This document shows, one piece after another, positions 1 through 51,100 of a DNA stretch of 64,000 nucleotides. The notes beneath the pieces were generated by a model. That model had not been told where the DNA came from. It did not search any database and was given only the letters and a program-made list of their open reading frames with translations. A program made the position numbers and the translations under genes. This stretch comes from a virus. Position 1 is the first letter of the stretch. Every line of letters starts with the position of its first letter. The stretch lies in the IMG/VR virus record IMGVR_UViG_3300044632_001278; one strand, given 5' to 3'.

Positions 1-780
1 ATTAACAATACAGGTAGCGTTTTGAATTTGTTGACAAGAGATCCTATAGATCCAGATTATTCATCGTTGTATATGGATTATAAGACACTCATAACCACTT
101 ACGAAAAACAATATGTGTGTACTATATTGCCAGGAGAGTTTAATATATCAACGAATCCAACTGCTACAACTTCATCGCTTATAAATTATTGTGTAATTAA
201 TAAGAGCAATTTTAACTTTGAAAATTTGGATATAATTTTAAGATATATAAACTACAAAAATGTGTCACCAGGTTCTGAAAAATGGTATTTAAATATGATT
301 TCAAATGACGTTGAACAAAATATTTTTGGATTTTATACATCATCATATTTAAACTATAATACCAATTTGTTAACTCCTGAATTGAAAAACATATTGGCTG
401 AGAAAAATCTAGACGTTGATAACGATGGAAAAGTAGACATTTACGATGGTAAAATGATGTGGAAATATTTCATCAATAAGTTGAATTTCACAAACTACAA
501 GTCTTTTTTGAATACACTAAGCAATCGTAATAATTACGACGACATTATTAGATTTTTAGATAATCAAACAGGCAAGTCAATTAAAAATTACGTAAAACAA
601 GACTTTTTCAAGTATCAATATAGTTCTTCTATAGATCCAACTGGATCTTATTTGGCACCGTACATAACAACTGTGGGATTGTATAGTGGATGTGATTTGG
701 TTGCGGTTGCTAAATTGGCACAACCAATTAAAAATACTGGGGAAATTCCAATAAATATTTCTGTTAAATGGGACACTTAA
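1..780 (+). CDS. Virion structural (baseplate/tail-associated) protein, 5'-truncated
   Basis: Frame 1 is open from base 1. The C-terminus YITTVGLY...LVAVAKLAQPIK...INISVKWD resembles the tail-collar/baseplate C-terminal motif of large phages. Contains an EF-hand/dockerin-like DVDNDGKVDIYD. Confidence 0.6.
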   Translation: MNNTGSVLNLLTRDPIDPDYSSLYMDYKTLITTYEKQYVCTILPGEFNISTNPTATTSSLINYCVINKSNFNFENLDIILRYINYKNVSPGSEKWYLNMISNDVEQNIFGFYTSSYLNYNTNLLTPELKNILAEKNLDVDNDGKVDIYDGKMMWKYFINKLNFTNYKSFLNTLSNRNNYDDIIRFLDNQTGKSIKNYVKQDFFKYQYSSSIDPTGSYLAPYITTVGLYSGCDLVAVAKLAQPIKNTGEIPINISVKWDT

Positions 781-809
781 TTATATTTATTATAAAATAG
801 AACAAACAT

Positions 810-1118
810 ATGGCAACATCACCAGACGCAAAAGTAATAGACCGTGAATCATTAAAGACAAGCTTAGAAGCTAGATTTCTAGCCAAACAAAAAGCTGGCG
901 GTGCGTTTAATGCATATAAAGCTACAAGATTTATACCTGGAGGTACTATGTTAGATGGACTACAAGGAGAAATGGGTTATTCACAAAAATCTCGCAAATA
1001 TACAGTTAATCCAGGATTTCTTACATCAATCGACAATCAAGAAGCAAATTTTAATACAGAAGCGTTGAATTACTCCGACACTTTGCCAGGATTTAATACG
1101 AAACGATATTTTCGTTGA
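810..1118 (+). CDS. Hypothetical protein
   Basis: 102-aa ORF in operon context; ATATTTAT motif at 783-790 upstream. Confidence 0.6.
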   Translation: MATSPDAKVIDRESLKTSLEARFLAKQKAGGAFNAYKATRFIPGGTMLDGLQGEMGYSQKSRKYTVNPGFLTSIDNQEANFNTEALNYSDTLPGFNTKRYFR

Positions 1119-1130
1119 TATGTATTTTAA

Positions 1131-1643
1131 ATGGTTATATTAGGTTTAGATTCATCCACATCAGTTACAGGTTGGGCGTTTAGTAGAGACGGAAAAGTCT
1201 TGGACGCTGGTTATATTGACACAAAAAAACTCGAAACTACTAAAGAAAAAACCTTTTTTGTTATATCAGAATTGGAAAAAAATCCTTTAATCAAAGATGT
1301 CGCTACTATTAACTTAGAAGCCGCTTTAAGCGGATTTGCGGGTGGATTTACCAGTCAACAAGTCATCATTACATTAGCCAGACATAATGCTGTCTTTGCA
1401 TATATTATTGAAGAACACTTCAAGGTCAAGGTAGAGTTATTATCAGTTAACACTATGCGCAAACAGTTGTTTGGCAAATGTAGAATTAAAGGTGTAAAAT
1501 CCAAAGATTTTGTAAAATCAGAATTAGAATCACTTTGTCCAGATGTAGTTAAGTTTGCGGTTCTTAATAAAAAAGGTAATTGGGACGAAAGAAACGGTGA
1601 TATGTACGATGGTATAGTCTGCTCATTATATAAAAAGTTGTGA
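1131..1643 (+). CDS. ruvC: RuvC-like Holliday junction resolvase
   Basis: RNase H-fold motifs ILGLDSSTSVTGW, internal INLE, and C-terminal DMYDGI acidic residues. Confidence 0.8.
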   Translation: MVILGLDSSTSVTGWAFSRDGKVLDAGYIDTKKLETTKEKTFFVISELEKNPLIKDVATINLEAALSGFAGGFTSQQVIITLARHNAVFAYIIEEHFKVKVELLSVNTMRKQLFGKCRIKGVKSKDFVKSELESLCPDVVKFAVLNKKGNWDERNGDMYDGIVCSLYKKL

Positions 1644-1665
1644 TTTCAAATTTAGGTGTTATACT
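1638..1665 (+). promoter_or_regulatory. Sigma70-type promoter for primase
   Basis: TTGTGA-16 nt-TATACT with extended -10 TG; ATG 7 nt downstream. Confidence 0.55.
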
Positions 1666-1672
1666 AATCTAA

Positions 1673-2584
1673 ATGACTGTAGTTGACACATTATCAAGAT
1701 TATTTAAGCAAAAAATTCACATCCAAAAAGGCGGTGAAGAAATTCTTGTTTTTTGTCCCAGTTGCAGTCATCACAAACGTAAGTTAAACATCAATACAAA
1801 AACTGGATTTTACCAATGTTGGGTATGTGGGTTTAGTGGCAAAAGTTTTCATAGTCTATTAAAAAAGATAAAGGCTCCTAAAGAATATTATGACATTCTG
1901 TGTAAAGATGGACCCAAACGAACCAATGTTGTAGTAAAAGAAGAAAAAAAGATATTAAGTTTGCCTGAAGAGTTTAAACCTTTGTGTAAACCAAATAATG
2001 ATATTGAGTATAAACACGCATTGAGTTACTGTTTAAACCGTAATATATCTACTTTAGATATAGTTAGATATAACATTGGGTATTGTACCAGTGGAAATTT
2101 TATCAATAGAATCATTGTGCCGTCATATGATTGTCAAGGAAAGCTCAACTTTTACTGTGGTAGATCGTTTTACGACGGATATCTTAAATATAGATTGTGT
2201 GATGGTAGCAAAGATATTATAGGATTTGAACTATATACAGATTTTAATCAACCAGTAACTTTGGTAGAAGGTGTGTTTGATGCTATGTCTGTAAAGTATA
2301 ATGTTATTCCTTTGTTTGGCAAAACTTTATCTAAATCACTCAAACTAAAATTGGTAGAAAACAAACCACCCAGAGTAAATGTTTTGTTGGACAACGATGC
2401 ATTGGCATCAAGTTTGAAAATTTGTGAATTTTTAATTGCAAATGATATAACTACATATTTGGTAAGACTTGACGGCAAAGATCCAAATGAATTGGGTCAT
2501 AAAAAAACTTGGCAAACCATAGATAGTTGTGTTAGAATGGATGAAAGCTTGTTGTATAAGTTAAAATTAACAGTTAAATTATGA
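1673..2584 (+). CDS. DNA primase (Zn-binding domain + TOPRIM)
   Basis: CPSC...CWVC zinc ribbon, RIIVP, EGVFDA, LDND and KDPNE TOPRIM motifs. Confidence 0.9.
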   Translation: MTVVDTLSRLFKQKIHIQKGGEEILVFCPSCSHHKRKLNINTKTGFYQCWVCGFSGKSFHSLLKKIKAPKEYYDILCKDGPKRTNVVVKEEKKILSLPEEFKPLCKPNNDIEYKHALSYCLNRNISTLDIVRYNIGYCTSGNFINRIIVPSYDCQGKLNFYCGRSFYDGYLKYRLCDGSKDIIGFELYTDFNQPVTLVEGVFDAMSVKYNVIPLFGKTLSKSLKLKLVENKPPRVNVLLDNDALASSLKICEFLIANDITTYLVRLDGKDPNELGHKKTWQTIDSCVRMDESLLYKLKLTVKL

Positions 2585-5500
2585 TTGTATTAAAAAATAC
2601 AGATAAAAAAATTAATTCGGTGGTGCATATTGCGGATATTCATATTCGTTTAACAAAACGTCATGACGAATATACTTTGGTTTTTGAAAAGCTTTATAAA
2701 GCCCTTGATAAAGCAAAAACACTGGATGCTATCTTGGTTATAGCCGGTGATTTGTTTCATAATAAATCCGATTTAAGTCCTGAATGTGTTAAAATTGGAA
2801 GTGATTTTCTAAAAAATTGCGCAGATAGAGTTCCTGTTATTTTAACGGCTGGCAATCACGATGCTACATTGGCTAATAAATCTAGATTAGATTGTATTAC
2901 ACCAATTGTGGATGCTTTGAATCACCCTAATCTATTTTATCTCAGAAATACAGATGTTTATAGATATGAAAATATTTTGTTTAATAACTTTAGTGTTTTT
3001 GATTGGGATGTCCCTGAAAAATACATTAAGTACGAAAATATCCCATCGAAATATCGTGATGAAACAGACCATCACATTGCTTTGTTTCACGGACCAGTAT
3101 ATAATGCTGTTACTGATGTTGGGTACACTGTTAGTAGCCGATCTGTAACCAATGAAACTTTTGATGGACATCACATTGCTATGCTTGGTGATATTCACAA
3201 ACATCAAATTCTACAAGAATATGATGACAATGAATCTTTGCCAGTTGTTGTATATGCGGGATCGATGATTCAACAAAACCACGGTGAGGAGCTTAAAGGC
3301 CACGGTTTCATTATGTGGGACTTGAAACGTAAATTATTCAAACACTACGAACTAGTAAATGAATATGGGTATTATACGGTGGAAGTTGACAAGGGTCAGT
3401 TGATTACGGATATTTCTAACATCCCAAAGAAATCCACACTACGTGTTATCTGTCGTGAGTCCATTCCTTCACAAGTAAAGGAGATTTTAAATGACATCAA
3501 AACCAAATCTACGTTAATCGAAACCACCTATGTTCGTGCCGACGATGTATCAAAAGATACAATTTTGAACTCTGGAAAAGTGTTTGATGTACATAACATT
3601 TTTGATGTTGACTACCAAAACAAATTGGTAGAAGACACATTGTTATCAAAAAATGTAGATAAGAATCTAATAGAAATGGTCAAGGATCTAAATAAGACCA
3701 TTAATAAAGAAATACCAAAAGATAAAGCTCCAAAGAATATTCGTTGGAAACCAAAGAAATTTGAATTCGACAATATGTTTAGTTATGGCGAAGGCAATAT
3801 AATAGATTTTGCTAAACTAAACGGCACTATCGGACTTTTTGCACCAAATGCTAGTGGTAAATCAAGCATTATGGATGCGCTTGCATTCTGTGTTTTTGAT
3901 AAGTTCAGTAAGGGTTACAAAGCATCACACGTGCTTAATACTCAAAAAATGAGCTTTCGTTGTAAGTTTAATTTTGAGGTAAATGGAGTTGATTATTTTA
4001 TTGAGCGTGAAGGTAAAGCAGACAAGAAAGGCAATGTCAAAGTTGAAGTCAAATTCTACAAAAAAGAAAATGACAAAGAAGTTCCATTGAACGGAGAAGC
4101 TCGTAGAAGCACAAACGATATTATTCGCGACTACGTTGGTACATATGAAGATTTTATTCTTACTGTTTTAAGTGTACAAAACAGTAAAGCTGGGTCTTTT
4201 ATTGATCTTGGACAGACTGAGAGAAAAGATTTATTGTGTCAGTTTATGGGATTGGATGTATTTGATCAATTATATACTATCGCAAATGATAAGTTTAAAG
4301 AAACAAATACTTTATTAAAGAATATAAGTAAAGATCAACTTATTCAAGAGTTGGAAACTGTATCTGGCAGTATAGACTATACTAATTCCAAGATTCAAGA
4401 GTTTAACGAAGAAGTAAAAAATCAAGAATTGTTAAAGGATTCTTATAACAATCTCTTATTAGAATTATCCAATAAAATTACTAAGACTGTAAGTTTTGAT
4501 TTTGATATTGTTAAATTGGAAAGTAACAAAATTGAACTTGAAGGTCAGATTAATGAAACCAATCTTAATATTAAACTTCAAAAAGATAAACTAATTGATG
4601 TAGAAACAAATATTACCAATCTGTCTTCATCCATATCAGACTGCGAAAATATTGATCGTGATTATGATCTTTATAAAGTTGCCAAACAAAATTTTGATAA
4701 CAAGACCAATGAATTAAATAATCTTAAGCTTGTTGTGAAAAATAAAATGGACAAATTGAAAAAGTTGGAAGATCACAAATATGATCCTAACTGTTCATAT
4801 TGCGTAAACAATGTATTCGTAAAAGATGCAATAAAAGTCAAAGCTGAATTGGAGAATGATAAAATCAAAAGCAAGGTTATTGTAGATGAGTATAATACAA
4901 TAAAGTCATCTTTGGAGAGTTATGGCGACATTGAAACAAAATTCAAACGTTGTCAAAAAGTAAATAACGATAAAGTTGCTTTTGAAAAAAGCAAGAGTGT
5001 TATTTCAAATACCATTCTTAAGTTGGAAAATGATCTTATTAAGATTCAAACCAAACTTAAGACTGTAACAGATAACATTTCAACTTTTTATACAAATAAA
5101 GATATTATTGAGAATAATAACAAGTTGATGTCTGACATCAACACTCAGAAAGATTTGATTAAATCTATCGACGTTAATATTAAATCTATTAATTCCAAGC
5201 TTTTTTCCTCATTAACTGAAAAAGGAAAGTTAGAAGTTCAGTATAAAACTGTTACTGAACAATTGCAAAAGGTAAAAGAATTAGAGTCGAGTTATGAAGC
5301 TTACAAACATTATACAAATGTAGTTAGCCGTGATGGAATTCCATATGAAATTATAACCAAGACTCTTCCTGAGATTGAAAAGGAAGTTAATAATATTCTT
5401 CAACAGTTAGTAGATTTTACAGTTACTCTTCAAACTGATGGAAAAAACATTATGACCAATATCGTTTACGAAGACAAACGTTGGCCACTTGAAATGGCAA

Positions 5501-5772: not shown

Positions 5773-5773
5773 T

Positions 5774-6733
5774 ATGCCTATTATCGACGATATCTATTTG
5801 GAAAAGTTTGGAAAATTAACAATTATTATTACGGATGAAGGTGTGTTTAAAACCATCAATGATTCATCGGTTAATTATGAGTTTATAATAACAATACGAA
5901 GTTTAGATTCCAATCTTATTTCACATATTATGTATCACCACTGTACAGTGGGGCATGATATGTGGACCTATAATTATAACATTTTTTATATAAAAGAAAT
6001 TTTAAATAAAAATCATCCTGGCATTTGCATAGAAATACACGATGTAGACAATACATTATTATTCAGTAAAAATTATCACGGTACTAAAAAATTTAGATGT
6101 TTGGATTTAAAATCTAAACAAGGTGATACAACCTATCCATCTTACCATACATTTTTCTACGATGATTATTTTACATCAAATTTTAATATCAAAGATGGAG
6201 ATGTTGTTTATGATCTGGGAGCTAATATTGGTGCGTTTTCTATTGCGTGTTCTAATTTTGATATCAAACAAATATATGCATTTGAACCACATCCAGAACT
6301 CTCACAGTATCTTAACGATAATTTGAACAGATATGGTAAAAACACAAAAGTGTTTAATAATGCGATTTCAAGTGAATTTAAAAAAGTAAGATTTGGTACC
6401 ACAGAATCTACAGTTGCTTCCAGAATTAGAAACGAAGGTGAATTTGAAGTTGATGCTATTAATTTAGAAAAGTTTGTAATAGATAATAATTTGGAATTGC
6501 CAACTTATTTAAAAATTGATATAGAAGGAGCTGAATATGAGTTTTTTGAAAATACAAGTGACAATTTCTTCAAAAATGTTAGAAGTATATTCTTTGAATT
6601 TCATTGCAATGACGGCGTAAATCTACTTAAAATAATTGATAGATTTAAGAATTTAGGATACAAGTTAAGTCACAAAGATAATGCCTTGGATCATAATCTA
6701 TCACATATGAACACCGTATACTTAAATAAGTAA
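5774..6733 (+). CDS. FkbM-family SAM methyltransferase
   Basis: YDLGANIG, AFEP, LKIDIEGAE and FEFH motifs. Confidence 0.88.
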   Translation: MPIIDDIYLEKFGKLTIIITDEGVFKTINDSSVNYEFIITIRSLDSNLISHIMYHHCTVGHDMWTYNYNIFYIKEILNKNHPGICIEIHDVDNTLLFSKNYHGTKKFRCLDLKSKQGDTTYPSYHTFFYDDYFTSNFNIKDGDVVYDLGANIGAFSIACSNFDIKQIYAFEPHPELSQYLNDNLNRYGKNTKVFNNAISSEFKKVRFGTTESTVASRIRNEGEFEVDAINLEKFVIDNNLELPTYLKIDIEGAEYEFFENTSDNFFKNVRSIFFEFHCNDGVNLLKIIDRFKNLGYKLSHKDNALDHNLSHMNTVYLNK

Positions 6734-6736
6734 ATT

Positions 6737-8749
6737 ATGAAAAAAATATTGTTTATAGCTCCACATCTTTCTACTGGAGGACTACCTCAATTTTTATTGA
6801 AAAAAATACAATCGTTAATTAATGATTATGAAATATATTGTGTAGAATATGATGATATTACTGGTGGAGTTTTAGTTGTTCAAAGAAAGCAGCTTCAGAA
6901 AATTTGCGGTAAGAGGTTTTACACATTATCATCAAATAAATTTGAGTTACTAAAGTTAGTTGACAATATAAAACCTGACATTATTCATTTGGAGGAAATG
7001 CCAGAATACTTTATGGATGTTAACTTGGCTACTAAACTCTATAATAAAGACCGAGAATATCTAATTGTGGAAACTTCGCACGATAGTAGTTTTGATCCAA
7101 GAAGAAAGCGTGTTTTTCCAGATAAATTTACATTCGTAAGTAATTATCAGAAACAAAACGTCGAATCTTTAGGCATAAATACTACAGTTATTGAATATCC
7201 AATTTCTGTGAAGTGTAGAAAAGATAGATCTGAAGGATTGAAATTTTTGGGATTGGATGAAAGTAAAAAACACGTATTACACGTTGGATTGTTTACTCCT
7301 AGAAAAAACCAAAAAGAATTTATAGAATATGCTCGTGCAATGGAAAAAGAACATATTCAATTTCATTGTCTGGGTAATATGGCTGATAACTTCAAAAATT
7401 ATTGGCAACCTCTGTTGGATAATTTACCGAGTAATGTAAAAGTTTGGGGTGAACGCAAAGATGTAGAAAACTTCTACAGTTGTATGGATTTGTTTTTGTT
7501 CACTAGCAGAGGTCACGCAACTGATAAAGAGACAGCACCTATTGTAATTAAAGAGGCTATATCTTATAATATACCATCTCTATTGTACAATTTGCCTGTT
7601 TACCTTGATAGATACAAGGTATTTGAAAATATCAAGTATCTAGACGAAACCAATTTTAATCGTAATGTTAAACTCATAAAGAATCAATTGGGGATGATTT
7701 CAGATTCTGAAATAGAGATTGTTAATATAAAGAAAACTGCAAATAAAAACACGGTGGTTATCATATCAACACATCCCAATTTTAAAGCTGTAGAAGACAC
7801 AACTTTGGAATCAATTAATCAAGCTAAAAAAGCTGGTTATAAAGTGTTGTTGTCATCTCATTATCCTGCTAGTGTTGATTTGCAAAAAGCGGCTGATCAT
7901 TATGTATATGACTCAAACAATCCAATTTTAAAACATAATTTCTATAATAGATGGACATACAACACAGATAATACCAAGATCAATTTATTTTTTCCACCTT
8001 CCGATTGTGATAATTATCACGGTCTTGCTGTATTATTAAACTATTACAATGGCATATCATTGGCAAATAAAATCGGATACAAAAATGCAATTTGCTTCAA
8101 TTATGATATGGTCATTTCAGAATCAGATTTTTCAAAGTTATACGATGTAGATGAAATTCTAATTAATAAGAAAGCATTTTTCTTTTATGATAAGGCCTTA
8201 GAAGGTGACACATTCAAAACAGTATTTCACGGAATTAATACTCAATTTTTCTTGGATAATTTTGATTACTATACGCCAGAAGAATATATGGAATTTGTTA
8301 CCAAGAAAAATATATCAAATGGATTGGAACAATTCTATTATAATAAACTAATATCTAATAAGAGCGATCTTCATATAGATTATACAAACAACGAAGAATC
8401 TTATTTAAGCAATAGTAAAAATAATTTATTCTCAATGGTAGAATATCTATCGGTTCTGAGGATGAAGAATATAAATAAGTTTGGAGTATTAACATACATC
8501 AATAATAAATTAGATGGTCGTATAAATGAGATAATAATAAAAAAGAACGGAGAGGTAGTTAACAATTATTCTTACACGGTATCAGAAAAGGTTTGTTTTT
8601 ATTTAGCAAACGAGTTTGAAAACAATAATTTCTATGAAATTGAAAATAATCTATATGATCAAAATAAAATTTTATTGAGAAGTTATAAAAAGTCATTTAG
8701 AAGATTGGAAGACATAGATATTAACGGTTCTATTGATATTACACAATGA
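6737..8749 (+). CDS. Glycosyltransferase (GT4/GT-B) with extra C-terminal domain
   Basis: HLSTGGLPQ N-terminus, VGLFTPRKNQ, DLFLFTS...ETAPIVIKEA. Confidence 0.82.
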   Translation: MKKILFIAPHLSTGGLPQFLLKKIQSLINDYEIYCVEYDDITGGVLVVQRKQLQKICGKRFYTLSSNKFELLKLVDNIKPDIIHLEEMPEYFMDVNLATKLYNKDREYLIVETSHDSSFDPRRKRVFPDKFTFVSNYQKQNVESLGINTTVIEYPISVKCRKDRSEGLKFLGLDESKKHVLHVGLFTPRKNQKEFIEYARAMEKEHIQFHCLGNMADNFKNYWQPLLDNLPSNVKVWGERKDVENFYSCMDLFLFTSRGHATDKETAPIVIKEAISYNIPSLLYNLPVYLDRYKVFENIKYLDETNFNRNVKLIKNQLGMISDSEIEIVNIKKTANKNTVVIISTHPNFKAVEDTTLESINQAKKAGYKVLLSSHYPASVDLQKAADHYVYDSNNPILKHNFYNRWTYNTDNTKINLFFPPSDCDNYHGLAVLLNYYNGISLANKIGYKNAICFNYDMVISESDFSKLYDVDEILINKKAFFFYDKALEGDTFKTVFHGINTQFFLDNFDYYTPEEYMEFVTKKNISNGLEQFYYNKLISNKSDLHIDYTNNEESYLSNSKNNLFSMVEYLSVLRMKNINKFGVLTYINNKLDGRINEIIIKKNGEVVNNYSYTVSEKVCFYLANEFENNNFYEIENNLYDQNKILLRSYKKSFRRLEDIDINGSIDITQ

Positions 8750-10890
8750 AAATTATACAAGTTAATTTAGGGTTATTGCCTATTCCGCCTAATGGATGGG
8801 GTGCAGTTGAAAAAATCATTTGGGATTATCATCAACTGTTAAACAAAAAGGGATTAGAATGTCAGATAAAGTATTTGAATGAAATTAAATATTCAGACGA
8901 TATAATCGTACATATACACGTAGCAAATCTGGCAAATGAATGTCATAAAAGAGGCATACCTTATATCTTTAGTTTACACGATCATCACGCTTATTTGTAT
9001 GGCAAAGATTCATCTGTATATAAAGAGAATTTACAAGCAATTGAAAATAGTGTAATATCCACTTGTCCTGCCAAATATTTGGTTGATTATTTCGGAAGTA
9101 AAAAATTACGTTATTTTTCCCACGCGGTAAATACCGATGTGTTTAAACATAAAAATAACAAAATTCCAGTAAATAAACTGTTGTGTGTTGCAAATAATGG
9201 TTATGCCAATAATCAATCATATGATAGAAAAGGATTCACATATGCGATTAAAGTGGCTAAAGAATTAGGATATCCAATTACTATTGCTGGACCATCTAAT
9301 AATAAAAAGTTCTTTGATATATTAGATGAAGAATTAAATCAGTATGATAAATTGACAAAAGTATTTGATTTAAATGAAGAATCGTTGATCGATTTATATA
9401 ATGACCATTCTATATTCATACACCCATCTGAATTGGAAGCAGGACATCCAAATCTAACGCTTTTAGAAGCAATGAGTTGTGGTTTACCTGTGGTAGGTAC
9501 GTTTGAGGAAAAATCATATAAAGGTATGGTTGTTGTTGAACGAAATGTAGAACAAATAAAATCCGCAATACAACAAATCACATCTGATTATAGTCGATAT
9601 CAAACCAAAGCTTTGGAGTGTGCTAAGGAAAATTCCTATTCCAACCGAGTAGACCAGTTAATCGATTTATATGATCAATATACTGAACGATTGTTTGCTA
9701 TTAAACACATCGATGTTTATGAAAATCTTAAAAAGAATGAAAAGAGTATTAAAACAAATGCGGTATTTAAATATTCATTCAATGATAATGCCAAGATTGA
9801 AGTGGATAACCCAGTAGACGTAGATCAAAGTTTCCACATAACATTCTATAATGGTGACGATAATAGTATTAAATATGAAACTGATTTAAAACATAATTGG
9901 TGGGGAAGTTGTAATTTTACATATTACATTCCCTATGAAATTCACATTAAAGATAATAAGACTAATGAATTGGTCGAAACATATAAGTTAAATTTAAAGA
10001 ATAAGAAAGTAGTAATTGAATATGAAAGTTACTCTTTAGGCGATCAATTGGCTTGGATGCCTATAATTGAACAGTTTAGAAAAAAACACGAATGTGATCT
10101 TTATGTCAAGTTACCTTTGAAAAATATTTTTGAAAACAAATACCCTTCAATTAAGTTTGTTCACAATAACAAACCTATTTCAGATGCATTTGCAACTTAT
10201 AAACTGGGATATTATGTAGACGAAAATGGATCTAACAATGATAGATGCAAAACAGATCCCAGAAAACAACCTCTACAAAAAATAGCAAGTGACTATTTAG
10301 GGTTACCATATGAACCAGAATTACCATTGCTTGACTTTGAAATCAAAGAAAGACCTCTAAAAAAGAGATACGTCACAATTGCAACACAAAGTACGTGTCA
10401 AGCCAAATATTGGAACAATAAAGGCGGATGGGAACGTGTTGTTGAATATATAAAATCAAAGGGATTTGAAGTAATATGCATAGATAAACACAAAACATTC
10501 GGAAATGGATCGGATTATATGAATAGTATGCCATCCAATGCTTTAGATTTTACAGGAGATAAACCACTGGTTGATCGTATGAATCAAATATATCACAGTG
10601 AGTTTTTTATAGGTTTACCATCAGGATTGTCTTGGTTAGCTTGGGCAGTTAAAAAACCAGTAGTATTAATTAGCGGGTTCTCATATCCATATACTGAATT
10701 TGATACTCCTTATAGAGTACAAAACCACTCGGTGTGTACAGGATGTTGGAATGATTCGCTATTTGACAAGGGAAATTGGAAGTGGTGTCCAAAATCTGAT
10801 AAGAGAGAAGAGTTTGAATGTACCAAACAAATAACTCCAAAAATGGTTATGGATACCATAGATCAACTATTAATAGAACAAAAAATTTAA
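8746..10890 (+). CDS. GT4 glycosyltransferase fused to Aah/TibC-type (autotransporter) O-heptosyltransferase
   Basis: N-half: PPNGWGAVE, RKG, EAGHPNLTLLEAMSCGLPV. C-half: SLGDQLAW, QSTCQAKYWN, FIGLPSGLSWLAW, ISGFS and four metal-ligand Cys CTGC...CP...EC. Confidence 0.85.
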   Translation: MKIIQVNLGLLPIPPNGWGAVEKIIWDYHQLLNKKGLECQIKYLNEIKYSDDIIVHIHVANLANECHKRGIPYIFSLHDHHAYLYGKDSSVYKENLQAIENSVISTCPAKYLVDYFGSKKLRYFSHAVNTDVFKHKNNKIPVNKLLCVANNGYANNQSYDRKGFTYAIKVAKELGYPITIAGPSNNKKFFDILDEELNQYDKLTKVFDLNEESLIDLYNDHSIFIHPSELEAGHPNLTLLEAMSCGLPVVGTFEEKSYKGMVVVERNVEQIKSAIQQITSDYSRYQTKALECAKENSYSNRVDQLIDLYDQYTERLFAIKHIDVYENLKKNEKSIKTNAVFKYSFNDNAKIEVDNPVDVDQSFHITFYNGDDNSIKYETDLKHNWWGSCNFTYYIPYEIHIKDNKTNELVETYKLNLKNKKVVIEYESYSLGDQLAWMPIIEQFRKKHECDLYVKLPLKNIFENKYPSIKFVHNNKPISDAFATYKLGYYVDENGSNNDRCKTDPRKQPLQKIASDYLGLPYEPELPLLDFEIKERPLKKRYVTIATQSTCQAKYWNNKGGWERVVEYIKSKGFEVICIDKHKTFGNGSDYMNSMPSNALDFTGDKPLVDRMNQIYHSEFFIGLPSGLSWLAWAVKKPVVLISGFSYPYTEFDTPYRVQNHSVCTGCWNDSLFDKGNWKWCPKSDKREEFECTKQITPKMVMDTIDQLLIEQKI

Positions 10891-39691: not shown

Positions 39692-39699
39692 ATATTTAT
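39692..39699 (+). promoter_or_regulatory. Putative phage late promoter motif ATATTTAT (representative of about 16 oriented copies)
   Basis: The same motif sits 4-7 nt before starts at 14962, 24250, 34193, 36441, 39705, 49367, 51145, 53162, 56587 (+) and 25697, 34147 (-). Confidence 0.7.
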
Positions 39700-39704
39700 A
39701 AGAA

Positions 39705-42700
39705 ATGTCAACATTAAAGAAAGATCCATGCGAGGTTTCTCCAATAAAATTGGATAATGCTCTGTATGATTATAAAAAATTAACAGCGACTTTTAAAGAT
39801 CCTACCACAGAGCTGTTTCTTAAAATAATCGACGAATTACGTAAAATTATTTATTGTCGAACCAGTTCTCAGTTTTTCAACAATGTTGCTACTAAACAAA
39901 TACCATGCGATCAAAAATCAAAAACTTGGGTATTTGATCATAATTTAAACTCAGATCTAGTATTAATTCAAACATACGACGAGAATTTCAATCAATTAAT
40001 ACCAGAAACAATAGTACTCAATAATGATAATACCGCAACCATAACTTTTTCGTTTGATGCATGCGGATACATCATAGGTGTAAGCGGTAATATCAGCACC
40101 AGTGGTACTTCAGGCACAGGCACCAGTGGTAGTAGTGGTAGTAGCGGAGAAAAAGGATCAGCTGGATCAAGCGGAACAAGCAATACAAGCGGCACAAGCG
40201 GTACAAGCACATCTTCAGGTACCAGTGGTAGTCAAGGCACAAGCGGTACAAATGGTGAGGGTGGTAGTAGCGGTCAAAGTGGCGATATAGGAACCAGTGG
40301 AACTAGTGGAGAAAATGGAAGCAGTGGTACAAGCGGTAGTAGTGGTTTATTAGATGGATCAAGCGGATCAAGTGGTACAAGTACTACAAGCGGTACAACC
40401 GGCACAAGTGGCACAAGAGGATCAAGCGGTAGATCAGGCACCAGTGGAAGCAGCGGAACAAGTGGTAGTAGCGGAACAAGTGGTACTAGTGGTACAAGTG
40501 GTACCAGTGGTACAAGTGGCACAAACGGTACTAGTGGTAGCAGTGGCACCAGTGGTACAAGCGGATCTAGTGGCACAAGTGGTACAAATGGATCAAGTGG
40601 TACAAGTGGTAGCAGCGGATCAAGTGGTACAAGTGGATCAAGTGGTACAAGTGGTACAAGCGGATCTAGTGGCACCAGTGGTACTAGTGGTACGAGTGGT
40701 ACCAGTGGGTCAAGTGGATCGAGCGGATCTAGTGGCACAAGTGGCACATCTGGTATAAGTGGAAGCAGTGGTTCAAACGGCACAAGCGGCACAAATGGCA
40801 CCAGTGGCACAAGTGGTACTAGTGGAACAAGTGGTACAAGTGGTACAAGCGGTACAAGTGGATCATCTGGTAATAGTGGATCATCCGGTAGTAATGGGAC
40901 AAATGGCACCAGTGGTACAAGCGGCACAAGTGGTACAAGCGGTACTAGTGGTACAAGCGGAACAAGTGGTACAAGTGGTACAAGCGGTACAAGCGGTACT
41001 AGTGGATCAAGTGGATCAAGTGGGTCAAGTGGATCAAATGGTACAAACGGCACTAATGGTACAAATGGCACTAGTGGTACAAGCGGCACTAGCGGTACAA
41101 GTGGTACCAGTGGTACAAGTGGATCAAGTGGGTCAAGTGGGTCAAGTGGGTCAAGTGGATCAAGTGGATCTAATGGAACAAATGGTACCAGTGGTACAAA
41201 TGGTACCAGTGGTACTAGCGGAACAAGTGGTACAAGCGGTACTAGCGGATCAAGTGGTTCAAGTGGTTCAAGTGGGTTAAGTGGTTCAAGTGGTTCATCT
41301 GGTACTAGCGGATCGTCTGGCAGTAGCGGAACAAGTGGATCTAATGGCACAAACGGCACAAGTGGTACTAGCGGCACAAGTGGTACTAGCGGCACAAGTG
41401 GTACTAGCGGCACAAGTGGATCAAGTGGATCAAGTGGTACTAGTGGATCAAATGGTACAAGCGGATCTAACGGCACAAATGGCACAAGTGGATCAAATGG
41501 TACAAGTGGAACGAGTGGTACAAGCGGTACAAGTGGTAGTAGTGGAACAAGTGGTACAAGTGGTAGTAGTGGAACAAGTGGATCAAATGGCACAAGTGGT
41601 ACTAGCGGATCAAACGGCACAAGTGGATCTAATGGCACAAGTGGTACTAGTGGTACAAGCGGTACTAGTGGTACAAGCGGTACTAGTGGATCGAGTGGAT
41701 CAAGTGGATCAAGTGGATTAAGCGGTTCAAGTGGATCATCTGGTACTAGCGGATCAAGTGGATCATCTGGTACCAGCGGATCCAATGGAACGAATGGAAC
41801 AAGTGGATCGTCCGGTACTAGCGGATCAAGTGGATCGTCTGGTACTAGCGGATCAAGTGGATCATCCGGTACAAGTGGATCTAATGGAACAAGTGGTACT
41901 AGCGGATCTAACGGTACCAGTGGTAGCAGTGGCACAAGTGGTACAAGCGGATCAAGTGGTACTAGCGGTACAAGTGGATCAAGTGGATCAAGTGGTTCAA
42001 GTGGTTCAAGCGGATCAAGTGGCAGTAGTGGTACTAGTGGATCAAACGGTACTAGTGGTACAAGCGGTACAAACGGTACTAGTGGTTCAAGTGGTTCAAG
42101 TGGATTAAGTGGATCAAGTGGATCATCTGGTACAAGCGGATCAAGCGGTAGTAGTGGATCATCTGGTACAAGCGGATCTAATGGTACAAGCGGTAGTAGT
42201 GGATCAAATGGTACCAGTGGCACAAGTGGCACAAGTGGTACAAGTGGATCTAATGGTACAAGCGGTAGTAGTGGCACAAGCGGTAGTAGTGGATCATCTG
42301 GAACAAGTGGATCTAATGGCACAAGCGGTACAAGTGGTAGCAGTGGATCTTCTGGTATAAGTGGTAGTAGTGGAACGAGTGGCACAAGCGGTAGTAGTGG
42401 AACAAGTGGTAGTAGTGGATCAAATGGCACAAGCGGATCAAATGGTACTAATGGTACTAACGGTACTAACGGTACAAGTGGTACATCTGGTAGTAGTGGA
42501 ACAAGTGGTACTAGTGGAACAAGTGGATCATCTGGAACAAGCGGATCTAATGGTACAAGTGGAACAAGTGGGTCAAACGGTACAAGCGGTAGTAGTGGAA
42601 CAAGCGGTACTAGTGGTACTAGTGGCACAAGTGGTACTAGTGGCACAAGTGGTACTAGTGGATCATCTGGTATAAGTGGAACAAGCGGATCAAACGGCAC

Positions 42701-45700
42701 AAGTGGTACAAGCGGATCAAACGGCACAAGTGGTACAAGCGGTACTAGTGGCACAAGTGGTACAAGCGGTACTAGTGGCACAAGCGGTACAAGTGGTAGT
42801 AGTGGATCAAGTGGTACTAGTGGATCAAATGGCACAAGCGGCACAAGCGGCACTAGTGGTACTAGTGGTACGAGCGGATCTAATGGCACAAGCGGTACTA
42901 GTGGAACAAGTGGATCTAATGGCACAAGTGGTACAAGCGGCACAAGTGGTACAAGTGGGTCAAGTGGATCAAATGGTACAAGTGGGTCAAGTGGATCAAG
43001 CGGTACAAGTGGGTCAAATGGATCAAGCGGTACAAGTGGATCTAATGGCACAAGTGGCACAAGTGGTAGTAGTGGATCTTCTGGTATAAGTGGCAGCAGT
43101 GGTACAAATGGAACAAGCGGCACCAGTGGCGTAAGTGAATCAAGTGGATCAAGTGGAAGCAGTGGTACTAGTGGCACAAGTGGATCCAACGGTACAAGTG
43201 GCAGTAGTGGTACAAGTGGTACAAGTGGTAGTAGTGGTACAAGTGGATCAAATGGAAGCAGTGGCACAAGTGGAAGCAGTGGTACTAGTGGCACAAGTGG
43301 ATCTAACGGTACAAGTGGTACTAGTGGTACTAGTGGTACTAGTGGTACAAGCGGTACTAGTGGTAGTAGCGGATCGTCTGGTATAAGTGGGTCAAGTGGA
43401 TCAAGTGGCACAAGTGGTACAAGCGGATCGAACGGCACCAGTGGGTCAAGTGGATCAAGTGGATCAAGTGGCACAAGCGGATCAAGTGGATCAAGTGGTA
43501 CAAGCGGATCTAACGGTACAAGCGGATCTAACGGTACAAGTGGCACAAGTGGATCCAACGGTACAAGTGGTAGTAGCGGATCGTCTGGTATAAGTGGTAG
43601 CAGTGGAACAAACGGCACCAGTGGTACAAGTGGCACAAGTGGTATAAGCGGATCAAACGGTACAAGTGGTAGTAGCGGATCGTCTGGTACTAGCGGATCA
43701 AGTGGATCTAACGGTACAAGTGGTACAAATGGTACTAGTGGCACAAGCGGTACAAGTGGATCTAATGGTACCAGTGGTAGCAGTGGCACAAGTGGTACAA
43801 GCGGATCAAGTGGTACTAGTGGCACAAGCGGAACAAGTGGAACAAGCGGCAGTAATGGATCAAGTGGCACAAGTGGTATAAGTGGGTCAAATGGTACTAG
43901 TGGCACAAGCGGTACTAGTGGTAGTAGCGGATCGTCTGGTGTAAGTGGATCAAGTGGATCAAGTGGGTCAAGTGGGTCAAGTGGATCAAGTGGGTCAAGT
44001 GGATCAAGTGGTACAAGTGGATCAAGTGGGTCAAATGGTACTAGTGGCACAAGCGGAACAAGTGGATCAAGTGGGAGCAGTGGTACCAGTGGCACTAGTG
44101 GTACGAGTGGATCAAATGGTACCAGTGGAACGAGTGGAACAAGTGGTATAAGTGGGTCAAATGGTACAAATGGTACTAGTGGCACAAGTGGAACAAGTGG
44201 ATCAAGTGGTAGCAGTGGTACTAATGGTACTAGTGGTACAAGTGGTATAAGCGGATCAAATGGCACCAGTGGAACAAGCGGAACAAGTGGTACCAGTGGT
44301 ACTAGTGGTAGCAGTGGTACAAGCGGATTTAGTCGTGATAGTGGTAGCAGTGGTAATAGTGCCACAAGTGGTAGTAGTGGTACAAGTGGTAGTAGCGGTA
44401 CAAGTGGAACAAGTGGTAGCAGTGGTCAAAACGGAACAAGCGGAACAAATGGAACGAGTGGCACTAGCGGAACAAGTGGAACTAGTGGTAGCAGTGGTAG
44501 CAGTGGTATTAGTGGTAGCAGTGGTAGAAATGGAACCAGTGGTACAAGTGGCACAAGCGGAACAAGCGGAACAAGTGGTACTAGTGGTAGCAGTGGTACA
44601 AGCGGATTTAGTCGTGATAGTGGTAGCAGCGGTAATAGTGCCACAAGTGGTAGTAGTGGTACAAGTGGTAGTAGCGGTACAAGTGGAACAAGTGGTAGCA
44701 GCGGTCAAAACGGAACAAGCGGTACTAGTGGCACAAGCGGAACCAGTGGTAGTAGTGGTAGTAGTGGTAGCAGTGGTACAAGTGGTACAAGTGGTACGAG
44801 TGGTCGAAATGGAACCAGTGGTACAAGTGGTACAAGCGGAACCAGTGGTACAAGTGGAAGTAGTGGTACAAGCGGATTTAGTCGTGATAGTGGTAGCAGC
44901 GGTAATAGTGCCACAAGTGGTAGTAGTGGTACAAGTGGTAGTAGTGGAACGAGCGGCACAAGTGGTAGTAGCGGTCAAAACGGAACAAGTGGAACAAACG
45001 GAACAAGTGGCACAAGTGGAACGAGCGGAACAAGTGGTAGCAGTGGCACAAGTGGTCGAAATGGAACCAGTGGAACAAGTGGTAGCAGTGGTACGAGTGG
45101 CACAAGCGGAACGAGTGGTAGTAGTGGTACTGTTGGTACAAGTGGAACAAGTGGTGTAAGTGCTGGTGGAGGTGCTAGTGCTAGTAGTGGAAGTAGTGGT
45201 ATAAGTGGAACTAGTGGTAGCAGTGGTACGAGTGGCACTAGTGGTATTAGTGCTCCTAGTGGTACCAGTGGAATTAGTGGTGGTAGTTTTACTGATCAGC
45301 CTAATTATTTGGTAAAAACTACTGGTCTTACTACGTTACAGAGTGTTAATTTTTTAAGTGTGGATGGTACTACATTAACAGTTGTTGGAACTGTTAGTGC
45401 TACTACATTGATAGAAACGTCTAGTGAAAATACTAAAACGGATATTATGCCTTTATTGCCGCCGCAATTGGACAAGATTGTGTTATTGAATCCGGTGACA
45501 TTTAGGTATAAGAACAACAATGAATTTAGTATTGGTTTGATAGCTGAAGAGGTTGTGAAGATATATCCTGAATTTGTTAGTTATGATGAGTTGGGTAATA
45601 TATCTGGTATAAATTATAGTAAATTGACAGCTGTATTGATACAGGGTGTTAAAGAATTGAAGCAGATAGTTGATGAACAACAAATAACAATAAATCGATT

Positions 45701-45713
45701 GATAAATAAATAA
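39705..45713 (+). CDS. Giant Gly-X-Y (Ser/Thr-rich) fibre protein with C-terminal S74 intramolecular chaperone
   Basis: About 1700 aa of GTS/GSS/GSN triplets; C-terminus SSENTKTDI...LNPVTFRYK...IGLIAEEV...INYSKLTAVLIQGVKEL. Confidence 0.85.
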   Translation: MSTLKKDPCEVSPIKLDNALYDYKKLTATFKDPTTELFLKIIDELRKIIYCRTSSQFFNNVATKQIPCDQKSKTWVFDHNLNSDLVLIQTYDENFNQLIPETIVLNNDNTATITFSFDACGYIIGVSGNISTSGTSGTGTSGSSGSSGEKGSAGSSGTSNTSGTSGTSTSSGTSGSQGTSGTNGEGGSSGQSGDIGTSGTSGENGSSGTSGSSGLLDGSSGSSGTSTTSGTTGTSGTRGSSGRSGTSGSSGTSGSSGTSGTSGTSGTSGTSGTNGTSGSSGTSGTSGSSGTSGTNGSSGTSGSSGSSGTSGSSGTSGTSGSSGTSGTSGTSGTSGSSGSSGSSGTSGTSGISGSSGSNGTSGTNGTSGTSGTSGTSGTSGTSGTSGSSGNSGSSGSNGTNGTSGTSGTSGTSGTSGTSGTSGTSGTSGTSGTSGSSGSSGSSGSNGTNGTNGTNGTSGTSGTSGTSGTSGTSGSSGSSGSSGSSGSSGSNGTNGTSGTNGTSGTSGTSGTSGTSGSSGSSGSSGLSGSSGSSGTSGSSGSSGTSGSNGTNGTSGTSGTSGTSGTSGTSGTSGSSGSSGTSGSNGTSGSNGTNGTSGSNGTSGTSGTSGTSGSSGTSGTSGSSGTSGSNGTSGTSGSNGTSGSNGTSGTSGTSGTSGTSGTSGSSGSSGSSGLSGSSGSSGTSGSSGSSGTSGSNGTNGTSGSSGTSGSSGSSGTSGSSGSSGTSGSNGTSGTSGSNGTSGSSGTSGTSGSSGTSGTSGSSGSSGSSGSSGSSGSSGTSGSNGTSGTSGTNGTSGSSGSSGLSGSSGSSGTSGSSGSSGSSGTSGSNGTSGSSGSNGTSGTSGTSGTSGSNGTSGSSGTSGSSGSSGTSGSNGTSGTSGSSGSSGISGSSGTSGTSGSSGTSGSSGSNGTSGSNGTNGTNGTNGTSGTSGSSGTSGTSGTSGSSGTSGSNGTSGTSGSNGTSGSSGTSGTSGTSGTSGTSGTSGTSGSSGISGTSGSNGTSGTSGSNGTSGTSGTSGTSGTSGTSGTSGTSGSSGSSGTSGSNGTSGTSGTSGTSGTSGSNGTSGTSGTSGSNGTSGTSGTSGTSGSSGSNGTSGSSGSSGTSGSNGSSGTSGSNGTSGTSGSSGSSGISGSSGTNGTSGTSGVSESSGSSGSSGTSGTSGSNGTSGSSGTSGTSGSSGTSGSNGSSGTSGSSGTSGTSGSNGTSGTSGTSGTSGTSGTSGSSGSSGISGSSGSSGTSGTSGSNGTSGSSGSSGSSGTSGSSGSSGTSGSNGTSGSNGTSGTSGSNGTSGSSGSSGISGSSGTNGTSGTSGTSGISGSNGTSGSSGSSGTSGSSGSNGTSGTNGTSGTSGTSGSNGTSGSSGTSGTSGSSGTSGTSGTSGTSGSNGSSGTSGISGSNGTSGTSGTSGSSGSSGVSGSSGSSGSSGSSGSSGSSGSSGTSGSSGSNGTSGTSGTSGSSGSSGTSGTSGTSGSNGTSGTSGTSGISGSNGTNGTSGTSGTSGSSGSSGTNGTSGTSGISGSNGTSGTSGTSGTSGTSGSSGTSGFSRDSGSSGNSATSGSSGTSGSSGTSGTSGSSGQNGTSGTNGTSGTSGTSGTSGSSGSSGISGSSGRNGTSGTSGTSGTSGTSGTSGSSGTSGFSRDSGSSGNSATSGSSGTSGSSGTSGTSGSSGQNGTSGTSGTSGTSGSSGSSGSSGTSGTSGTSGRNGTSGTSGTSGTSGTSGSSGTSGFSRDSGSSGNSATSGSSGTSGSSGTSGTSGSSGQNGTSGTNGTSGTSGTSGTSGSSGTSGRNGTSGTSGSSGTSGTSGTSGSSGTVGTSGTSGVSAGGGASASSGSSGISGTSGSSGTSGTSGISAPSGTSGISGGSFTDQPNYLVKTTGLTTLQSVNFLSVDGTTLTVVGTVSATTLIETSSENTKTDIMPLLPPQLDKIVLLNPVTFRYKNNNEFSIGLIAEEVVKIYPEFVSYDELGNISGINYSKLTAVLIQGVKELKQIVDEQQITINRLINK
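40099..45285 (+). repeat. 9-bp period coding tandem repeat (e.g. ggtacaagt / ggatcaagt), roughly 570 imperfect units
   Basis: Directly visible; higher-order units containing agcggatttagtcgtgat at 44322, 44601 and 44871. Confidence 0.95.
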
Positions 45714-48700: not shown

Positions 48701-49211
48701 CGGTGGTGCTAATGGAACAAGTGGCACCAGTGGCGCAAATGGCAGTCCAGGTGGTGCGGGTAGCAGTGGTACCAATGGAACGAGTGGCACCAGTGGCGCA
48801 AATGGTAATCCAGGTACCAGTGGCACTAGTGGCGCAAATGGTAATGCTGGGTCTAGTGGTATTACTGGTACCAGTGGTACTAGCGGTGTCACAAATATAA
48901 AAGCATGGATTCACTTTAATGGAACAGGCACACCATCATCTAACGCGTCTAATAACGTATCATCCATAACTGATAATGGTACCGGCGATTATACAATTAA
49001 CTTTACCACTGCATTTTCTAATGCAAATTATGTGGTAGCTGGTACAGCAACTTATCAATATGAAAATCCCGGTCAATCTATAAATAATATGTTTATTGCA
49101 GTACCAAGAAGACCTACAGCACAATTAGCTGGTAGTTGTAGAATTTCTACGCCTGGTTCTGATAACGTATTATACGATTGCGATTATGTTAGAGTATTAT
49201 TTTCAAATTAA
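45723..49211 (+). CDS. Modular tail fibre / receptor-binding protein
   Basis: 11 G(N/S/D/C)VGIGT repeats separating variable modules; short Gly-X-Y stretch; C-terminal AWIHFNG...SSITDNGTGDYTINF domain. Confidence 0.8.
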   Translation: MAILQGARITGSIIATTFIKASGFSGSLTASRLYVQGSVGIGTTSPVYKLDVVGSVYSSNYFSVLTAATYGPSDNSAAMQVFGSTGSGGLTNTIKFVTVGSERVRIDNNGNVGIGTTSPTGTYGKLSVAGGIRILDDNNAKLEIGRYSSGASNSYIKLGSNSNSLRITNNTDAADIFTIENGGNVGIGTTSPNYLTDIQSTTSPQTLNLKLNKTSTTNDYAEIAFQLWSGAGSGANTFGGSGTSRPSVVLRALNENGGTAAGAFIVGTFTGGSDNSTLTEKFRITSVGNVGIGTTSPSQLLEVAGSSPIIRVLATSGNSTLRLTDNGVRNWDLKVVDTSDYFEVGGTSATSLVVTGAGNVGIGTTSPVFSLDVTGGVGLNTSGTGVSVTIGANNTSDRYLRIRNSNGNFEIGSAGNQHYLYGVGASNFFTIYTNSSERFRIAADGNVGIGTTSPSQKLTINNGSSTGAGAVYPIRLSGGTMTSVGDSTGLLFIQRDANDDYGAYIRLYTTQANPQYLNPRLEFGVQTTDTNVLGSVVTRMVITGDGDVGIGTTSPTAQSNYRFLQVNGTNSAVIETMVGGSRIGGFDSSASALYVGSIGSYPVVFRTAVDEKMRIATDGNVGIGTSTPAYKLDVVGSINTSNFMFVSYPYGNAFPLQLTANNFLKADNYYYGMSINTGDVNYISGKFLINGGTYKRVELYGYENSVGYIPTIIPGGCVGIGTIITNSGLQIQTEGTNTTSGSFLFVRSTNSSFGGGAIGVGYDYAAAVGANFYPFRIRAGSTNTILLINSAGVVYAGDTTGAVAYGNHDPYYAFNQDTNTGMDWAAADTLTFKTGGSERMRIASNGSVGIGTTSPNYTLQVNGTFYVNSTTYMNGSLTVEDSFIIDGRLAGSFGTGSILMKSGNSSGTWNQFNIFYYKNSSIDRLGFVDGGSVEILTLKNGGNVGIGTTSPVNKLHISGSSTNLPLKLEGLTSNATGYFLTVDNTTGVVYKSTGGANGTSGTSGANGSPGGAGSSGTNGTSGTSGANGNPGTSGTSGANGNAGSSGITGTSGTSGVTNIKAWIHFNGTGTPSSNASNNVSSITDNGTGDYTINFTTAFSNANYVVAGTATYQYENPGQSINNMFIAVPRRPTAQLAGSCRISTPGSDNVLYDCDYVRVLFSN
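45831..48575 (+). repeat. Interspersed ~30-bp direct repeats GGTAATGTTGGTATAGGTACAACAAGTCCT
   Basis: Identical copies at 46050, 46269 and 46794; variants at 45831, 46584, 47055, 47358, 47577, 47868, 48258 and 48546. Confidence 0.85.
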
Positions 49212-51085: not shown

Positions 51086-51100
51086 TATTTATTGTATCAA

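Follow-up and report, generated by a model that had tools for sequence, protein, structure and literature searches.

A candidate protein O-glycosylation cassette with an Aah/TibC-type domain in a T4-like phage, and a collagen-like fiber as its proposed acceptor

What would a phage modify with an enzyme of the Aah/TibC kind? The question is raised by a stretch of DNA from IMG/VR virus record IMGVR_UViG_3300044632_001278, in which three tightly packed plus-strand open reading frames (ORFs; 5774-6733, 6737-8749, and 8746-10890) encode an FkbM-family S-adenosylmethionine (SAM) methyltransferase, a protein that begins with a glycosyltransferase family 4 (GT4) domain, and a 714-amino-acid protein in which a second GT4 domain is fused to a BAHT (Aah/TibC-type) protein O-heptosyltransferase domain. 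The whole stretch analyzed, referred to here as the window, is 64,000 nucleotides long with a G+C content of ~32% and corresponds to bases 2329-66328 of the 75.6-kb record, whose CheckV completeness is 32%. We propose, with a probability of roughly 0.68, that the three genes form an accessory protein O-glycosylation cassette that acts on the phage's own Gly-Thr/Ser-Ser collagen-like fiber. The features concerned are collected in Table 1.

Family and active site of the BAHT domain

Judged by its sequence, the C-terminal domain can securely be regarded as a genuine Aah/TibC-type (BAHT) protein O-glycosyltransferase. Residues 337-707 matched TIGR04414 hepto_Aah_TibC, the NCBIfam equivalog model termed 'autotransporter strand-loop-strand O-heptosyltransferase', at 344.4 bits (cut-off 200; E 7e-103; model positions 8-373 of 374), and a phmmer search against all PDB sequences returned TibC alone (4rap/4rb4; E 3e-76; TibC residues 26-386), to which the phage domain is ~45% identical by manual count on the phmmer alignment. 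When the residue roles described in the TibC structure paper (PMC4358343) are mapped through that alignment, the catalytic base is kept (D433 for TibC D110), as are all four sugar-binding residues (T550, K554, R611, and W630 for TibC T226, K230, R286, and W305), the proline at the D,D-heptose selectivity site (P625 for TibC P300), and the four iron-binding cysteines (C664, C667, C681, and C692 for TibC C339, C342, C358, and C370). The iron-finger cysteines are invariant in all 33 viral homologs aligned, and both the finger and the BAHT-specific N-terminal barrel are present in the phage domain. The preliminary description of this DNA had named an Aah/TibC-type domain on the basis of the motifs SLGD, QSTCQAKYWN, GLSWLAW, and CTGC..CP..EC; all of them were found in the 714-amino-acid protein, the model search placed the C-terminal domain above the TIGR04414 cut-off, and a grouping with glycosyltransferase family GT9 was not seen.

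Identity as a GT9 lipopolysaccharide (LPS) heptosyltransferase of the WaaC/WaaF/RfaQ kind was rejected, as the corresponding models gave 19-23 bits (RfaQ, 22.6 against a cut-off of 467; Heptosyltransferase I, 19 against 185), and Pfam GT9 matched a partial stretch only, at 25 bits. These scores bear directly on the idea that the cassette targets something other than protein, namely host LPS or glycolipid, for example in superinfection exclusion, or the phage DNA. Such a target seems very improbable. The cassette does lie among early/middle replication and recombination genes and has no late motif, GT4 and GT9-like folds commonly act on lipids, and phage glycosyltransferases often modify DNA (PMC12619734), but the protein-modifying equivalog model scores far above its cut-off, the domain keeps the barrel and iron finger specific to BAHT enzymes, and a non-protein target would leave the association with repeat-protein genes, described below, unexplained.

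The fused architecture is general among viruses. A scan of IMG/VR yielded 57 loci with a BAHT domain (33-99% identity), and in 57 of 57 the domain belongs to a longer protein, at its C terminus or internally; it is joined most often to GT4, in a fusion that is kept in nearly all viral homologs, and sometimes to a methyltransferase, a GT-A-like domain, or FkbM. FkbM domains are met repeatedly next to viral BAHT genes or in fusion with them. The repeated fusion of GT4, BAHT, FkbM, and the GT-A-like domain across phages, in several permutations, argues that their activities work together. In three close relatives with TerL (large terminase) sequences ~90% identical (L282, G100:C1:69444-73550; G105; and G106), a second, truncated BAHT ORF of 285-293 amino acids directly follows a GT4-BAHT gene encoding 712-716 amino acids; the truncated ORFs lack the N-terminal barrel and match model positions 79-374 at 208-212 bits.

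Among bacteria, with one genome taken per species, BAHT relatives were found in at least 529 stretches, and in the best 80 of these the enzyme is mostly stand-alone, in stop-to-stop ORFs of ~380-490 amino acids. A FastTree phylogeny of 33 viral and 92 bacterial BAHT domains, rooted at the midpoint, placed all 33 viral domains in one clade of 40 (support 0.81), whose 7 other members come from bacterial or archaeal assemblies. These cellular sequences of viral type include L466, on a Pacearchaeota metagenome-assembled genome (MAG) contig, L439, from a Flavobacteriales MAG, L447 and L477, both from Arenicellales, and L470; they may be of phage origin and have entered the MAGs through binning, or bacteria may truly use the enzyme.

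A collagen-like fiber as the proposed acceptor

TibC modifies Ser but not Thr and accepts peptides as substrates (PMC4358343); no AIDA-type autotransporter gene was found in the window. The best candidate acceptor there is a proline-free collagen-like fiber of 2002 amino acids, in which an N-terminal domain of ~130 residues is followed by Gly-X-Y repeats and a C-terminal Peptidase_S74 intramolecular chaperone domain (PF01391 Collagen, E 2.4e-10; PF13884 Peptidase_S74, E 1.4e-10). The C terminus also matched PHROG tail-fiber C-terminal domains, with E values down to 3e-21. The repeats amount to 546 in-frame triplets, the longest uninterrupted run extending over residues 230-1144, with Thr (57%) or Ser (37%) at the X position, Ser (84%) or Asn (14%) at the Y position, and no proline; a rise of 0.286 nm per residue, as in collagen, predicts a length of ~470 nm for the repeat region. 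Its G+C content is 0.49, compared with ~0.32 elsewhere. A 1363-amino-acid antisense ORF (40274-44365, minus strand) and several out-of-frame plus-strand ORFs cross the repeats, and these are triplet-repeat artefacts, not genes. The preliminary description was right that a Ser/Thr-rich fiber exists here and might be an acceptor, but its length was given as ~1700 amino acids, and the collagen-like Gly-X-Y nature and the S74 domain were overlooked. A second tail fiber, which carries a stretch of ~25 Gly-[Thr/Ser/Ala]-[Ser/Asn] triplets near its C terminus, is a possible minor acceptor.

The assignment of the fiber as acceptor appears well supported by comparative genomics, and for this window that support is indirect. 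With a nucleotide pattern that matches four G[ST][ST] triplets in a row, runs were detected in 33 of the 52 BAHT-bearing viral records, which are mostly fragments 5-48% complete, at up to 1102 per record, and the reversed pattern, used as the control, gave 0 in every one of the 52. In the reverse test, viral records were picked solely by G[ST][ST]x7, and 42 of at least 30 kb were searched for BAHT, which was present in 18 of them (17 above the cut-off) and in 6 of the 9 whose completeness is 90% or more. Among 35 control records picked for Gly-Pro-X x5 there was none (18/42 versus 0/35, Fisher p = 3.4e-6, in samples that were the first matches listed per scan, not random draws, and in which the array-selected records were larger than the controls); the size-restricted contrast, among records of at least 79 kb, was 11/16 versus 0/6 (p = 0.012). 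A check for such co-occurrence had been suggested beforehand, and its outcome, with the genes often adjacent, speaks for the proposed pairing.

The arrangement of the two genes points the same way. In clade C (L039-L043 and L059), the BAHT gene is followed 1-2 kb downstream by a convergent repeat ORF with an S74-like domain at its end, while in clade D (L047-L057) a repeat ORF of 1300 to >2600 amino acids ends 0.5-1.4 kb upstream of BAHT on the same strand. Arrays are missing from one near-complete BAHT-positive clade D record (G004), but its sequence stops at the BAHT gene, and a break in the assembly has probably removed the array. A cultured phage of Microcystis, Mel-JY01 (PP395634; locus L002), carries a Gly-Thr/Ser-Ser repeat ORF of at least 1016 amino acids (2..3052, plus strand) 1.7 kb upstream of a 1227-amino-acid BAHT fusion protein, and further repeats of this kind lie downstream too, the repeat stretches being 1-3052 and 9152-9986. 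The GenBank entry places minus-strand, Pro/Val/Glu-rich 'hypothetical proteins' (1-651, 739-2298, and 9361-9898) over these stretches, and the repeat regions are probably annotated on the wrong strand. In the 735-kb megaphage LR756501 the pattern matched 1447 times, and seven of the matches fall within ~6 kb of the BAHT gene. Genomes positive for both BAHT and arrays range from 66 to 735 kb and, as compared by TerL, include T4-like relatives 55-56% identical, one distant relative (31-36%), and two without detectable similarity; several lineages are therefore involved. In bacteria, a G[ST][ST] ORF lay within 10 kb in 3 of the best 80 of the at least 529 BAHT stretches. Gly-X-Y ORFs were found near 4 of the 7 cellular members of the viral-type clade and 2 of 73 other loci (p = 3e-4), and the collagen-like association therefore tracks the BAHT subfamily.

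An alternative is that the cassette glycosylates other phage proteins, such as sheath, capsid, or tail, or host proteins, and that the link to fibers reflects shared ancestry among large aquatic phages. In the clade of this phage the cassette abuts the sheath gene, the sheath carries ~1000 extra N-terminal residues, the fiber gene is 29 kb away, and the array-selected sample is biased to large phages. Nevertheless, we consider this alternative unlikely. The adjacency to the sheath is lost in distant clades, and adjacency to the fiber appears independently in two clades and in Mel-JY01; the pairing of enzyme and fiber is shared by lineages with no detectable TerL similarity; and large Gly-Pro-X control genomes lack BAHT. 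The sheath and capsid, which had been put forward at the outset as Ser-rich acceptors, were accordingly set aside as main acceptors, the enrichment being slight (combined Ser and Thr fractions of 0.19 and 0.17, against 0.10-0.16 in other proteins). The order SbcCD-cassette-sheath is limited to the close clade (at least 61% identity); the next clade keeps the cassette behind SbcCD but not beside the sheath. In a complete 296-kb relative (G095; TerL 70% identical), which has neither BAHT nor arrays and still has a 1083-aa sheath, the slot between SbcCD and sheath is occupied by an unrelated Ser-rich ORF of 1012 amino acids (L487, G095:C1:153000-163000; 3535-6573, minus strand) with no Pfam match. 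In clade B loci, the ORF after SbcCD is a homolog of it (22-25% identity). The slot appears to be a variable insertion point. A two-by-two table of BAHT and arrays among the terminase relatives was abandoned as uninformative, most contigs being fragments too short to reach across both loci and only the complete G095 and a half-complete relative (G096) being usable.

Several observations weigh against the fiber as acceptor of the BAHT enzyme and should be set beside the evidence above. The 29 kb that separate cassette and fiber in this phage mean that their link is made by analogy with other clades, and the statistics are subject to the sampling already described. No G[ST][ST] run occurs in LR756504, although this genome is complete and BAHT-positive, and, conversely, G096 (51% complete) has a small array and no BAHT. 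The BAHT acceptors known so far consist of beta-helical autotransporter repeats and not of Gly-X-Y triplets. The hydrophobic tip of the thumb that serves the TibC dodecamer (F265/V266) is replaced by Ser589/Asp590 here, and the thumb region is gapped or variable among the viral homologs. The cassette, which is packed against primase and SbcCD genes, has no late-promoter-like motif. With regard to the donor, gmhA was not found in five complete BAHT-positive phage genomes, and no heptose-pathway gene was found in the present record, which is 32% complete.

Donor sugar, companion domains, and gene setting

Heptose is the likely sugar, as the preliminary description had also assumed; the claim gains support from the conserved sugar-binding residues and from HldE-like genes that stand beside BAHT in another clade. 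In clade C locus L039, cupin-like, HldE-domain-II-like, and HldE-domain-I-like genes lie between the BAHT and fiber genes (L039 11070-12572) and together form a split HldE-like set, the latter two with scores under the curated cut-offs. An HldE-like kinase was detected in 6 of the 25 records with BAHT (5 of the 8 near-complete ones) and in none of the 22 records without BAHT (0 of the 10 near-complete ones; p = 0.007). A search for rfaE_dom_II in the five complete BAHT-positive genomes gave only sub-threshold small nucleotidyltransferases. No HldE-like kinase was found in the record or its close relatives, all of these being incomplete, and the phage would have to draw on the ADP-heptose of its host. 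The ORFs at 49367-52927 were considered as GmhA/GmhB/HldE and rejected, since they encode a deoxyribonucleotidase-like fusion, a tail tube protein, a nicotinamide mononucleotide (NMN)-adenylyltransferase-like protein, and a baseplate protein.

The donor evidence also bears on the possibility that the fiber is indeed glycosylated, with a GT4 domain as the initiator, in the manner of GtfA, or with a donor other than heptose, so that BAHT would extend the glycan or use another nucleotide sugar. GT4 accompanies nearly every viral BAHT, the positions of Arg286 and Pro300 vary in clade D and Mel-JY01, gmhA is missing as noted above, and Mel-JY01 infects a cyanobacterium, a group whose LPS usually lacks heptose. 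The variation at Arg286 is itself weakened as a sign of a donor switch, the clade C arginine being shifted by one alignment column. On the other side, the catalytic base and every residue that contacts heptose are of the TibC type in this window, HldE-like genes lie between the BAHT and fiber genes in clade C, and HldE-kinase-like genes were found solely in BAHT-positive phages. We regard a GT4 initiator or a different donor as quite unlikely, and initiation by BAHT with heptose is retained in what follows.

The trio of FkbM, GT4, and GT4-fusion genes was located correctly in the preliminary description, from which the GT-A-like C-terminal half of the second protein was missing. The GT4 domain of that protein is 41-56% identical to the GT4 domains fused to BAHT or FkbM in other phage clades. 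Residues 341-670 gave no match in Pfam, NCBIfam, or PHROG; in an AlphaFold2 model built from an eight-sequence alignment (pLDDT, the predicted local distance difference test, 87), the first ~220 residues adopt, according to Foldseek, a GT-A/nucleotide-diphospho-sugar-transferase fold, after which a beta-sandwich follows. The Foldseek matches included glycogenin, GnT-I, POMGNT1, ColGalT1 (a collagen galactosyltransferase), KdsB, and RmlA, with E values from 2.5e-5 to 1e-3, and the predicted domain may be either a glycosyltransferase or a sugar nucleotidyltransferase. Its atlas neighbors are virus-only clusters; other clades encode it in a gene of its own, and in Mel-JY01 it forms part of the fusion enzyme. 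The N-terminal 135 residues of the FkbM protein are without family assignment. With the modeled domain counted, the cassette would comprise three or four sugar-handling domains and a methyltransferase.

The window contains T4-type genes for the sheath (PF04984/PF17482), large terminase, portal, major head protein, gp15-like and gp19-like proteins, and baseplate proteins, and it therefore belongs to a large T4-like myovirus; the source is a large freshwater T4-like phage. The primase-like, SbcCD-like, and cassette genes are contiguous, with overlaps or gaps of 1-4 nt. The sheath (10929), the fiber (39693), and about ten other structural genes are closely preceded by the motif TATTTATA, with plus-strand copies at 10929, 14951, 21749, 24238, 34988, 36429, 39693, 50563, 53148, and 56575 and a distance of 10-80 nt to many structural gene starts, which is consistent with a late-promoter motif that differs from the TATAAATA of T4. 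The T4 motif itself was rejected as the signal of this phage, because its sole plus-strand copy in the region (8470) is intragenic and the recurrent motif is TATTTATA. A motif scan of the window found no TATTTATA before 5774, 6737, or 8746, and scans for sigma-70 promoters and terminators gave nothing exceeding shuffled expectation. The upstream transcription unit seems to end with the cassette, the sheath being under a late-type signal of its own. As the cassette lacks TATTTATA and the sheath has its own copy, the adjacency to the sheath is one of position only; the suggestion that the cassette lies directly before the sheath thus stands, but that of an operon shared with it does not.

Table 1. 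Features of the cassette, the candidate acceptors, and their surroundings, with the split HldE-like set of clade C locus L039.
Feature	Position	Strand	Details
FkbM-family SAM methyltransferase	5774..6733	+	319 aa; PF05050 residues 147-298, E 7e-17, 62.6 bits (cut-off 22.7); TIGR01444 82.8 bits (cut-off 37.7)
GT4 (GT-B) domain	6737..7756	+	N-terminal half of 670-aa ORF 6737-8749; PF00534/PF13692 residues 169-290, E 3e-10 to 5e-10
GT-A/nucleotide-diphospho-sugar-transferase-like domain (predicted) and C-terminal beta-sandwich	7757..8749	+	residues 341-670 of ORF 6737-8749
GT4 (GT-B) domain	8746..9753	+	N-terminal part of 714-aa fusion; PF00534 residues 160-283, E 1.6e-12
BAHT (Aah/TibC-type) protein O-heptosyltransferase domain	9754..10890	+	residues 337-714 of 714-aa ORF
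Collagen-like fiber, proposed main acceptor	39705..45713	+	2002 aa, proline-free; translation, triplet statistics, Pfam, PHROG
Second tail fiber	45723..49211	+	1162 aa; PHROG tail-fiber families; PF01391 residues 998-1055
TATTTATA, late-promoter-like motif	39693..39700	+	12 nt upstream of fiber start codon
Primase-like gene	1673-2584		upstream of SbcCD-like gene
Fused SbcCD-like gene	2581-5772		directly upstream of cassette
Tail sheath gene	starts 10970		PF04984 and PF17482
5'-3' deoxyribonucleotidase-like domain fused to unknown PHROG domain	49367-50530		387 aa; among tail genes
Protein with NMN-adenylyltransferase-like N terminus	51121-52053		310 aa; among tail genes
L039 cupin-like gene			128 aa; after BAHT gene
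L039 adenylyltransferase			135 aa; best family rfaE_dom_II (HldE domain II), 100 bits; next 60
L039 kinase			249 aa; best family rfaE_dom_I (HldE domain I), 122 bits; next 46

Proposed pathway and comparison with known systems

TibC acts in the cytoplasm, and from the analogy we infer for this phage that the BAHT domain (residues 337-714 of the protein encoded at 8746-10890) would put heptose on the triplet serines of the fiber, in the cytoplasm of the infected cell, as the fiber is made; the short similar stretch of the second fiber may be modified too. As hypotheses for the subsequent steps, the two GT4 domains and the GT-A-like domain would probably extend the glycan with further sugars, and the FkbM enzyme would probably cap it by O-methylation. 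The fiber would trimerize through its C-terminal S74 chaperone domain, and the glycans might stabilize or shield a triple helix of ~0.47 micrometers that has no proline. A wider proposal, which we advance tentatively and would place somewhat short of even odds, is that a virus-centered clade of BAHT enzymes exchanged autotransporter beta-helices for proline-free Gly-Thr/Ser-Ser repeats as its acceptor, and that dense, extended, and methyl-capped O-heptosylation enables triple helices up to a micrometer long, a kind of "glyco-collagen," in phages of 66-735 kb and a few bacteria.

What is new here is the occurrence of a known enzyme family in viruses, its fusion architecture, and the class of acceptor proposed for it. 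In full-text literature searches, BAHT enzymes were not connected with phages or with collagen-like fibers in any paper, and none on Mel-JY01 was found; the pipelines of the Joint Genome Institute (JGI) already label these metagenome proteins with the TIGR04414 name. If the fiber is the acceptor, the cassette would represent a second route of phage virion glycosylation, mechanistically different from the mycobacteriophage one, and a new class of acceptors would join the virulence adhesins for which BAHT enzymes are known so far. The same reading would also account for very long collagen-like fibers without proline or hydroxyproline, which are common in aquatic phage metagenomes, where fibers of this type often break assemblies. 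The fiber glycans could govern adsorption, protease resistance, or stickiness to host surfaces and particles, and the enzyme could be put to use in glycosylating designed Gly-X-Y proteins at densely spaced Ser residues. Direct testing is possible, as the cultured Mel-JY01 has the same pairing.

Parallels exist in several known systems. In the serine-rich repeat adhesins of Gram-positive bacteria, very long Ser-rich repeats receive their sugars in the cytoplasm from a GT4-type initiator (GtfA/GtfB) and from GT-A-type extenders, but that system has no BAHT domain and no Gly-X-Y periodicity, and it uses accessory Sec export. BclA, of the Bacillus anthracis exosporium, and worm cuticle collagen have Gly-X-Thr repeats with O-glycans, some of which carry methylated or unusual terminal sugars, and glycosylated Thr can replace hydroxyproline in the stabilization of a triple helix. 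Our idea that glycans might stand in for hydroxyproline in the phage fiber was drawn from these Thr-glycosylated proteins, which differ in being non-viral, in having proline-containing repeats, and in using other glycosyltransferases and sugars. Among phages, virion glycosylation has reportedly been described for mycobacteriophages by Freeman and colleagues in 2023. As summarized in PMC12619734, there is a likeness in that phage glycosyltransferases modify the phage's own structural proteins, and a difference in that the glycans are on the C termini of capsid and tail-tube subunits; the summary mentions no BAHT enzyme.

The closest systems are TibC-TibA and Aah-AIDA-I of Escherichia coli (PMC4358343), which share with the phage enzyme a common family, the N-terminal barrel, the GT-B core, the catalytic Asp, the ADP-heptose-binding residues, and the four-Cys iron finger. 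In both cases a cytoplasmic enzyme would place many sugars on the Ser residues of a long, repetitive, rod-like protein, this being a proposal on the phage side, and the acceptor encoded next door in bacteria has its counterpart in the repeat-protein gene next door in many phages. The differences are equally clear. The phage enzyme is fused to GT4, whereas the bacterial ones are mostly stand-alone proteins of ~380-490 amino acids; the tip of the dodecamer thumb is not conserved; and the viral-type sequences form a clade of their own. The proposed acceptor is a virion collagen-like fiber of Gly-X-Y triplets in place of a beta-helical autotransporter, and, with the extra transferases and the methyltransferase at hand, an oligosaccharide would be expected on it rather than single heptoses.

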